Source: Chloroflexia bacterium (GTDB lineage Bacteria; Chloroflexota; Chloroflexia; QHBQ01; JADMIH01). Taken from it: a DNA stretch of 27,773 nucleotides. The stretch is from the NCBI GenBank assembly GCA_038232115.1, contig JBBSIK010000001.1:1-27773 (forward strand), written 5' to 3'. Under the pieces are notes generated by a model that saw nothing but the letters and a program-made list of their open reading frames with translations, searched no databases and was not told where the DNA came from. This document shows, in pieces, positions 4,604 through 5,424 of the stretch. Every line of letters starts with the position of its first letter. Position 1 is the stretch's first letter. A program made the position numbers and the translations under genes.

Positions 4604-4798
4604 GGGCAGTAAAGTCTAACCTCGTGATGCGTGGTCAGTCCATATCGTACAGGAAGCCACAAGATACGGTCGAGACTCATAACCGCCCTAAAGGGGTGGG
4701 GATCGTTCTTTCCTGCGTGGTCAACGCCACAAGGAGATTGGCAACCTCACCACCCCTCCGAGCCACAGGAGACGATTCGATTCGAATTGTTTCCTATT
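4604..4798 (-). ncRNA. Predicted bridge RNA: 5' hairpin, target-binding loop and donor-binding loop
   Basis: Target-binding loop (4693-4756) closed by GGGGTGG/CCACCCC, with LTG ATCTCCT (4732-4738), a GTGG..CCAC hairpin and RTG AGGAAAG (4708-4714). Donor-binding loop (4604-4688) closed by GGGCGGT/ACTGCCC and AGTCT/AGACT, with LDG ACCGTATCT (4662-4670), a GTGG..CCAC hairpin and RDG ACGAG (4621-4625). The RNA ends are approximate. Confidence 0.88.
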
Positions 4799-4804
4799 AA
4801 TTCT

Positions 4805-4810
4805 AATATA
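4805..4810 (-). promoter_or_regulatory. -10 hexamer TATATT at the start of the IS left end
   Basis: Lies 2 nt inside the CT core. It pairs with the right-end TTGACA only in the excised circle. Confidence 0.65.
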
Positions 4811-4827
4811 CGAGGAGATATGTAAGA

Positions 4828-5424
4828 ATGGCTAACGAACTTAAAGGAAAGAAAGTAGCGATCCTAGTTGCGAATGGCTTTGAGCAGGTGGAGCTAACCG
4901 AGCCGAAGAAGGCTCTGGAACAGGCGGGCGCGCAGACGCAGATCATATCGCCGGAGCAAGGCAAGGTCAAAGGCTGGAACCACACCGATTGGGGCGATGA
5001 ATTGCCGGTAGACGTGGCACTGAAGAGTGCGCAGGCCAGTGAATATGATGCTCTGCTGCTGCCAGGCGGGGTAATGAATCCAGACAAATTGCGTATGAAC
5101 CCGGAGGCAGTGAGGTTTGTCCAGAGCTTTGTAGACGCGAAGAAGCCTATCGCCGCGATCTGTCATGGTCCCTGGACGCTGATCGAAACGGGCATGATAA
5201 AGGGCCGTACGATGACATCCTATCCTTCGTTGCAGACCGACCTTCGTAACGCAGGCGCCGAGTGGGTAGACCGCGAGGTGGTGACCGACAAGGGTCTCGT
5301 TACGAGCCGCAATCCCGGCGACATCCCTGCATTCAATCGCAAGATGGTGGAGGAGTTCGCGGAGGGCGAGCACAGCAGGCAGGGCAACCACCAGTATGCG
5401 GAGCAGGATGCTGCTTCGGTTTAG
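4828..5424 (+). CDS. pfpI: DJ-1/PfpI family type 1 glutamine amidotransferase-like protein (protease I / deglycase YhbO-like)
   Basis: Motifs GFEQVEL, YDALLLPGG, AAICHGPW (nucleophile elbow) and LVTSRNPGDIPAF. SD GAGGAG at 4812-4817. Confidence 0.93.
   Translation: MANELKGKKVAILVANGFEQVELTEPKKALEQAGAQTQIISPEQGKVKGWNHTDWGDELPVDVALKSAQASEYDALLLPGGVMNPDKLRMNPEAVRFVQSFVDAKKPIAAICHGPWTLIETGMIKGRTMTSYPSLQTDLRNAGAEWVDREVVTDKGLVTSRNPGDIPAFNRKMVEEFAEGEHSRQGNHQYAEQDAASV

Follow-up and report, generated by a model that had tools for sequence, protein, structure and literature searches.

Targeting of Shine-Dalgarno (SD) boxes and start codons by IS110-family elements is already known from IS900 of Mycobacterium avium subsp. 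paratuberculosis, which inserts in an orientation-specific manner at translation initiation regions. This behavior is reflected in a paper by Doran et al. from 1997, which the literature cites under the title 'IS900 targets translation initiation signals', and Conde et al. (2021, PMC8141618) give the target motif as CATGNNNNNNTCTCCTT and describe few intragenic insertions. For IS621, a further member of the family, a bridge RNA and its recombinase have been characterized (Durrant et al. 2024, PMC11208160; Hiraizumi et al. 2024, PMC11208158). We found no publication that treats IS900 together with bridge RNA, or bridge RNA together with SD targeting, within a literature coverage that was incomplete, and an explicit mechanistic link leading from a bridge-RNA guide to SD targeting may be unpublished.

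Here, we analyze an IS110-group element located upstream of a pfpI gene in a stretch of 27,773 nucleotides (hereafter, the window) from the metagenome-assembled genome (MAG) of a Chloroflexia bacterium (3.0 Mb, 474 contigs, 63% complete). An initial annotation of the window had proposed that the bridge RNA of this element is programmed against a ribosome-binding site, and its author knew of no prior description of SD-directed bridge RNAs. For SD targeting as such, this does not hold in view of the 1997 report on translation initiation signals, as far as its title conveys, and of the published motif CATGNNNNNNTCTCCTT (PMC8141618).

Comparison with IS900 revealed several shared features. The motif CATGNNNNNNTCTCCTT contains TCTCCTT, a sequence also spelled by the left guide of the window's element, and the IS900-type consensus (complement of the start codon, CAT, followed by a spacer and a CTCCTT box) appears in the window as CAT, 9 nt, and TCTCCTT. 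The distance between CAT and the box is 9 nt in the window, 5-8 nt at other sites of the sub-family, and 6 nt in the IS900 motif. Differences concern the host, here a Chloroflexia MAG, and the crossover, which lies inside the SD box in the present case, so that the host gene keeps AGGAG. A counterpart of the antisense hed ORF of IS900 was considered and rejected: the longest plus-strand ORF within the element comprises 100 aa (3351-3653), and its ATG is not conserved in relatives.

With IS621 (PMC11208160, PMC11208158), the element shares the DEDD/RuvC-like and Tnp domains, a left-end bridge RNA with target and donor loops, a CT core, and, as read from the sequence here, a sigma-70 promoter that would be rebuilt at the circle junction. 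However, IS621 targets REP-type sequences, whereas the target of the window's element is an SD-like 12-mer; its right target guide comprises 7 nt compared to 4 nt in IS621, and the sub-family carries an extra 5' extension with AATCGAATCG repeats. The seekRNA elements of the IS1111 group (Siddiquee et al. 2024, PMC11187229) also perform RNA-specified, orientation-specific homing to recurrent short sequences, but encode their guide RNA in the right end (PMC11187229) instead of the left end. Finally, ISPpu9 and ISPpu10 (PMC12288879) are IS110 elements with orientation-specific homing to short repeated (REP-like) sequences, although their target is an extragenic palindrome and not a translation signal.

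Borders, Recombinase Gene, and Ends of the Element

Positions 3338-4814 of the window (minus strand) represent a complete IS110-group insertion sequence with a length of 1477 bp if the CT core is counted once. The order on the plus strand is ..TTTAATAGGAA-AG at 3326-3337, the insertion sequence at 3338-4812, and AG-GAGATATGTAAGA-ATG at 4813-4830, while the junctions on the element strand read ..ACATATCTC-CT-[IS]-CT-TTCCTATTAA... The element is devoid of inverted repeats. Its CT core, which reads AG on the plus strand, is present at both junctions, i.e., at 4813-4814 and, as the second copy at the right-end junction, at 3336-3337, and the same core was found in 30+ relatives. Borders were set by guide matches and by two more contig ends in the genome, at which an identical right end is followed by CT-TTCCT.

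The gene for the transposase, or bridge recombinase, is located at 3354-4511 on the minus strand and encodes 385 aa. It was assigned by Pfam matches to DEDD_Tnp_IS110 (PF01548, E = 6e-24) and Transposase_20 (PF02371, E = 4e-21), and by PDB matches to the transposases of ISCro4 (9t56, E = 6e-34) and IS621 (8wt6, E = 5e-31). At the level of these domain matches, the protein has the layout that characterizes the IS110 group, in which a DEDD RuvC-like domain at the N-terminus is combined with a Tnp domain at the C-terminus. Near the N-terminus of the recombinase, we also observed a Thr/Gly-rich insertion (TGTGTHTGTVTGTVTGTGNG; 4316-4380, codons about 45-65), which derives from a 12-nt tandem repeat. 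It does not occur in relatives and is 10 aa shorter in a variant with 93% identity (375 vs. 385 aa).

Both ends carry promoter-like boxes on the minus strand. The right end provides a TTGACA -35 box (3352-3357) that overlaps the transposase stop codon and is conserved in all related elements, and the left end provides a TATATT -10 box (4805-4810). Joined ends would give TTGACA-18 nt-TATATT for the window's element, and relatives combine TTGACA with TATAAT or TATATT at a spacing of 17-18 nt. By analogy to the known circle-junction promoter of IS110 elements, the right and left ends are therefore predicted to reconstitute a promoter in the circular form; no circle junction was found in contigs of four metagenome runs. 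In the integrated state, TATATT pairs only with the weak flank hexamer TAGCCA, forming an inward hybrid (TAGCCA-N18-TATATT). This hybrid, the only promoter-like site in the scan, was not above shuffle expectation, and inspection by eye gave no consistent hybrid -35 box at other SD-type flanks.

Bridge RNA and Its Guides

For structural comparison, we gathered related elements from assemblies, from metagenome and GTDB genome contigs, and from the genomes of relatives. Despite a transposase identity of only about 50-60% to the window's element, their left ends still align well, and 32 left ends were combined in an alignment (A2). A two-loop structure with five helices is supported by A2, with 88% of cells paired and compensatory changes in 15 of 23 pairs. 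None of 500 shuffles scored as high, and controls with a slid structure reached 37-53% pairing. RNAalifold alone gave just the two inner hairpins; the outer stems were specified by hand and then tested by covariation. Two of the elements, L010 (G016) and L021 (G033), originate from unpublished genomes and served as non-SD comparators only, i.e., in A2, the transposase tree, and the permutation test, and no claim on SD-type elements rests on either of them.

In the window, the scaffold extends over 4605-4756 on the minus strand and comprises a target-binding and a donor-binding loop with an inner hairpin in each. All four guides are encoded on this strand. Of the target guides, the left one (LTG; 4731-4738) reads ATCTCCT(T) and repeats, in the same sense, the left flank together with the core as they appear on the element strand. 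The right one (RTG; 4708-4714) reads AGGAAAG, the reverse complement of CTTTCCT, which is composed of the core and the right flank. Of the donor guides, the left one, ACCGTATCT at 4662-4670, equals the right end of the element plus core, and the right one, ACGAG at 4621-4625, is the reverse complement of CTCGT, which is formed by the core and the left end. Matches cover 7-8 nt for the LTG, 7 nt for the RTG, and 9 and 5 nt for the donor guides. LTG and RTG jointly spell AGGAAAGGAGAT on the gene strand, which corresponds to the 12-bp site ATCTC-CT-TTCCT on the element strand.

Guides and flanks were then compared across all 32 elements. Mean identity to the own flank was 4.9/8 for the LTG and 6.2/8 for the RTG, compared to 3.1 and 3.7 for shuffled flanks, and in both cases no shuffle reached the observed value. 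As the guides reside in internal loops of a covarying structure and themselves covary with the flanks, these matches are far above chance. An Rfam scan of positions 3000-5200 detected no bridge-RNA family and gave one chance miRNA match only. Taken together, the left non-coding end is predicted to encode a bridge RNA with target and donor loop, and, considered jointly with the recombinase domains and the promoter-like boxes at both ends, membership of the element in the IS110 group of bridge-RNA elements is well founded.

The pfpI Junction

The gene next to the left end (4828-5424, plus strand) encodes a DJ-1/PfpI family protein of 198 aa (Pfam PF01965, E = 8e-57). Its start codon is secure, since the Pfam domain begins at residue 8. 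Directly upstream, pfpI retains an AGGAG SD box at 4813-4817 (plus strand), which is composed of the core AG (4813-4814) and GAG, and which extends to GAGGAG with the IS-derived G at 4812. The junction today reads CGAGGAG (4811-4817). Removing the element together with one core copy in silico yields AGGAAAGGAGAT, followed by 8 nt and the pfpI ATG, so that the core comes to lie inside the SD box, and both target guides, LTG ATCTCCT and RTG AGGAAAG, match the flanks of this site. The initial annotation was thus confirmed with respect to the position of the core and the guides spelling the pfpI SD. It was equally right in that pfpI keeps an SD box at the same spacing (the distance of 10 nt from GGAG to ATG is unchanged by the insertion) and in that the gene was cut off from its native upstream region, which amounts to 375 bp. 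The transposase gene is oriented antisense to pfpI.

In seven genomes of the genus, the pfpI orthologues are preceded by GGAGG- or GGA-type boxes, the ends of which lie about 7-9 nt before the ATG. As an SD box occurs at the same place in these orthologues, the target site is a credible pfpI SD. The further claim that insertion rebuilds the SD box is true in terms of sequence, but describes no special feature. AGGAG consists of the core AG and the three bases of the left target half that adjoin it, both of which stay with the gene, and any element with this core position would leave AGGAG behind. The insertion sequence merely swaps the A before AGGAG for a G.

An empty-site allele was not found: across 25 genomes of the genus, orthologous pfpI loci reach 67-75% identity, and none has the exact site. 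Likewise, contigs of four metagenome runs contained no joint that skips the element. A promoter scan gave no outward promoter from the left end into pfpI. A hairpin at 4767-4795 is followed by a T-rich tract just upstream of pfpI. On the RNA strand, it is a 5' hairpin whose arms resemble the RTG (AGGAAAC) and the LTG (GTCTCCT); this hairpin is missing from relatives. The insertion may alter pfpI expression; a search of RNA runs gave none that contains the locus.

Two further observations concern the flanks. Within the left end, TTTCCTATTAA (4790-4800, plus strand) repeats the right flank TTAATAGGAAA (3326-3336) in inverted form over 11 nt. Part of the match of TTTCCTATTAA to the pfpI flank may be due to chance, as the variant L154 has a C for one T. 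The pyrR-pfpI intergenic region harbors a long inverted repeat at 3091-3220 (about 3062-3304) with arms of about 26 nt (GTCATTCCTCA..CGGAATCG and complement). In metagenome run X1, this stretch has a summed word depth of 140-200 compared to about 5 in neighboring genes, and it shows many loose ends, which identifies it as a small, MITE- or REP-like element that occurs in very many copies in the X1 community.

We consider it probable that an active IS110-group element was homed to the pfpI SD by its bridge-RNA guides, and that its sub-family prefers extended SD boxes, but also accepts look-alike codons. In such a scenario, the two-loop bridge RNA encoded ahead of the recombinase gene, with its target-loop guides ATCTCCT and AGGAAAG, would direct recombination at the CT core of ATCTC-CT-TTCCT, and AGGAAAGGAGAT on the gene strand would be the former extended SD box of pfpI. 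With a crossover on the 5' side of GGAG (gene strand), the gene would keep AGGAG and its spacing, while the upstream region would be moved 1.48 kb off. As CTCCTTTC copies the 3' tail of the 16S rRNA, extended SD boxes would constitute the main natural reservoir of targets, and look-alike coding sequence, i.e., the SRKG codons of IS3-family genes, would be entered as well, since the start codon would not be sensed. Based on homology, the recombination chemistry is expected to be that of IS621.

Other Copies of the Same Element

The genome contains three copies of the element, which are 100% identical over their assembled parts and all have CT-TTCCT on the right side. For the two copies outside the window, only right ends were assembled and no left-end junctions were found. 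In run X1, which probably represents the source sample, the element had a word depth of 19.2 compared to 2.9-12.3 in adjoining single-copy pieces. The corresponding unitig spans exactly from AGGAAAG to GAGA, so all X1 copies share these flank bases, as is predicted for guide-directed insertion.

A test put forward in the initial annotation, namely whether insertions with the same guides are located near start codons, gave a partly refuting outcome. One copy (C127) is located inside an IS3-family orfB, directly after AGC AGG AAA G (S R K G). A variant whose transposase is 93% identical (L154) has the same guides, and its right flank translates to YQQLLSAHKMVVSMSRK, again IS3 orfB. The right flank in run X3 is the same as in the IS3 orfB insertions. 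In the contig of P0002, a relative with 77% identity, an rve gene is found on this side as well, and the element is probably inserted in an IS3-family transposase gene. These cases, i.e., C127, L154, X3, and probably P0002, place the junction in SRK|G codons, and the programming of the bridge RNA against ribosome-binding sites, which the sub-family supports (see below), is accordingly qualified by the occurrence of the same guides at IS3 coding sequence. The third genomic copy (C196) is intergenic, 157 nt past the stop codon of a gene, with its gene-side flank unassembled; this position fits an SD site. In sum, one proven SD was found among three to five known insertion sites of the window's element. 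As a separate observation, the IS3-family element with orfA and orfB in C127 (6541-7440; L003) is degraded by several frameshifts, one of which results from 10 inserted nucleotides (GGAACGTGAG) that immediately precede the SRKG codons occupied by the IS110 copy.

A scan of the genome for guide-like sites gave a similarly divided result. The exact 12-mer does not occur anywhere else, and of six GGAAAGGAGA 10-mers, two are located at gene starts and one in IS3 orfB. The guides hence select sequence and not function, and they cannot distinguish an SD box from a coding look-alike. That the same element also enters IS3 SRKG codons is explained by guides that read only about 12 nt and not the start codon.

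These copies raise the question of which target is the original one. It could be that the long-term target of the lineage is the conserved coding motif SMSRKG(D/E) of IS3-family transposase genes, which are multi-copy and harmless to enter, and that the pfpI SD is a fortuitous look-alike. The orfB on the right flank of C127, L154, and X3 and the rve gene in the P0002 contig agree with this, as does an unoccupied IS3 copy of the genome (C436) that carries CGGAAAGGAGAT, encoding SRKGD; moreover, an element inserted in EATSTYW codons (L008) demonstrates that targeting of transposon motifs does occur in the family. Nevertheless, the IS3 sites may all go back to one ancestral insertion that was inherited with a diverging IS3. 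The right flank of L154 fits the guide at only 5/7 positions, the IS3 reading frame does not extend into the left flanks of X3 and X4, and C196 lies in intergenic DNA. Relatives with different outer guide bases are consistently found at gene starts and not in IS3 genes. We regard an IS3 motif as the original target as rather doubtful, and favor homing to extended SD boxes along with entry into look-alike codons.

Insertion Sites Across the Sub-Family

Elements with the AATCGAATCG-containing 5' extension form a sub-family in which left guides end with CTCC (or CCCC) and right guides mostly with (G)AAAG, while the outer bases differ. Twelve sites were found whose antisense flank starts with AGGAG or AGGGGAG. 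Eleven of these were readable, and an ATG follows 6-10 nt past the GGAG-type box in nine of the eleven. In addition to the 198-aa PfpI ORF of the window, the ORFs comprise at least 351 aa with a signal-peptide-like N-terminus (L005), at least 279 aa without Pfam match (L052), at least 172 aa of the erythromycin-esterase family (L135), and at least 151 aa of an ABC-2 membrane protein (L062). L004 has an ORF of 174 aa with an SSB domain from residue 35, so its true start may be located about 100 nt downstream; the ORF of L006 comprises only 36 aa, and the contigs of L061 and L065 are too short to judge the ORF. L132 is characterized by a terminator-like hairpin and L063 lacks a start codon. L052 and L061 are two different insertions of one element, both at AGGAGATCCG followed by ATG.

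In the genome to which the window belongs, only 10.7% of AGGAG sites and 31% of GAAAGGAG sites have an ATG at that distance. Compared to the motif alone, nine of eleven corresponds to P values of about 8e-8 (AGGAG) and 8e-4 (GAAAGGAG). A cruder ORF-based test found an SD context for 31% of GAAAGGAG sites and for 12% of permuted 8-mers. The sub-family is thus statistically enriched at SD/start-codon sites beyond motif expectation. The expected enrichment near start codons holds for the sub-family as a whole, whereas the window's element itself gives a mixed picture. Insertions in coding sequence are rare in the sub-family, though the window's element has its copies in IS3-family orfB. In the transposase tree, seven elements form a clade (support 100/100) that is exclusively SD-type; the window's element is placed on an unresolved polytomy and not inside this all-SD clade with support.

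Other members of the family target TGTGCTGG-CT-ACTTG, GC-rich hairpins, or EATSTYW codons within the transposase gene of a further IS110 element. Since these targets are unrelated, CTCC is not structurally required in the RNA. In this genus, the 3' end of the 16S rRNA reads CACCTCCTTTCTA and includes, letter for letter, the target core CTCCTTTC shared by the sub-family, and the conservation of both guide halves is explained by their together forming the complement of an extended SD.

The range of targets was illustrated by several further elements. In L008 (G037:C624, about 451-1770), the guides spell CCAGTAC-CT-ATTGGAT, which corresponds to the codons of the conserved EATSTYWI motif in IS110 transposases, and the element is nested in the transposase gene of another IS110 element that itself sits at an SD. 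L132, L050, and L066 are located in hairpins that are rich in GC and resemble terminators or REP sequences, and their guides match one stem arm; hence, the targets of one family range over SD boxes, hairpins, and genes of other transposons. L147 (about 81, about 1624) and L148-L153 represent one element with CTTCTGCGCG-CT guides, which occurs with at least five different flanks in contigs from Antarctic or rock metagenomes, and which in one case directly abuts the right end of another IS110 element. When 400 genomes of the class were scanned for the left-end motif, matches were mostly due to chance and about as frequent as in the reversed control, and just one new element, of the non-SD type, was obtained.

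The enrichment could also stem from the survival of harmless insertions instead of targeting: the guides would then represent a purine-rich 12-mer without ribosome-binding-site programming, and purifying selection would remove intragenic insertions while tolerating those that spare SD and ORF, in line with an ATG enrichment beyond motif expectation by guides that cover about 12 nt without the ATG, and with non-SD sites (L132 hairpin, IS3 orfB) at which insertion is harmless; but we consider this unlikely, as the core-proximal bases CTCC and AAG are fixed across transposases of only 50-60% identity while outer bases and other family members vary, and as the conserved 8-mer is that of the 16S tail, both of which fit selection on the guide itself.

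Discussion

The SD preference described here is the same as that long known for IS900. Guide-directed homing to extended SD boxes would connect it to a defined RNA, and homing of this kind may have been selected for. Going one step further, we tentatively suggest that the sub-family has fixed its core-proximal target guides on CTCCTTTC. Such guides would act as an anti-SD mimic that homes genome-wide, in an orientation and register that spare the SD, while the outer bases would choose between genes or look-alike codons. This extended proposal is possible, but we hold it with clearly less confidence than homing to the pfpI SD as such. If true, an anti-SD mimic guide would be the molecular explanation, apparently unwritten so far, of the IS900 observation from 1997.

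For the family, the finding links the bridge-RNA mechanism, which was described in 2024, with the old and unexplained preference of IS900 for ribosome-binding sites, in that the left guide carries an anti-SD-like sequence. It also points to a limit of homing, because a guide of 12 nt cannot separate an SD box from the same letters inside a gene. Noteworthy in this respect are the fixation of guides on the 16S-tail sequence throughout a sub-family and the fact that a single guide set serves for SD boxes as well as IS3 codons. Natural guide sets that tolerate one or two mismatches are of interest for tool building. With regard to genome annotation, IS110 copies located right before genes may silence or rewire these genes, while ORF and SD are left untouched.
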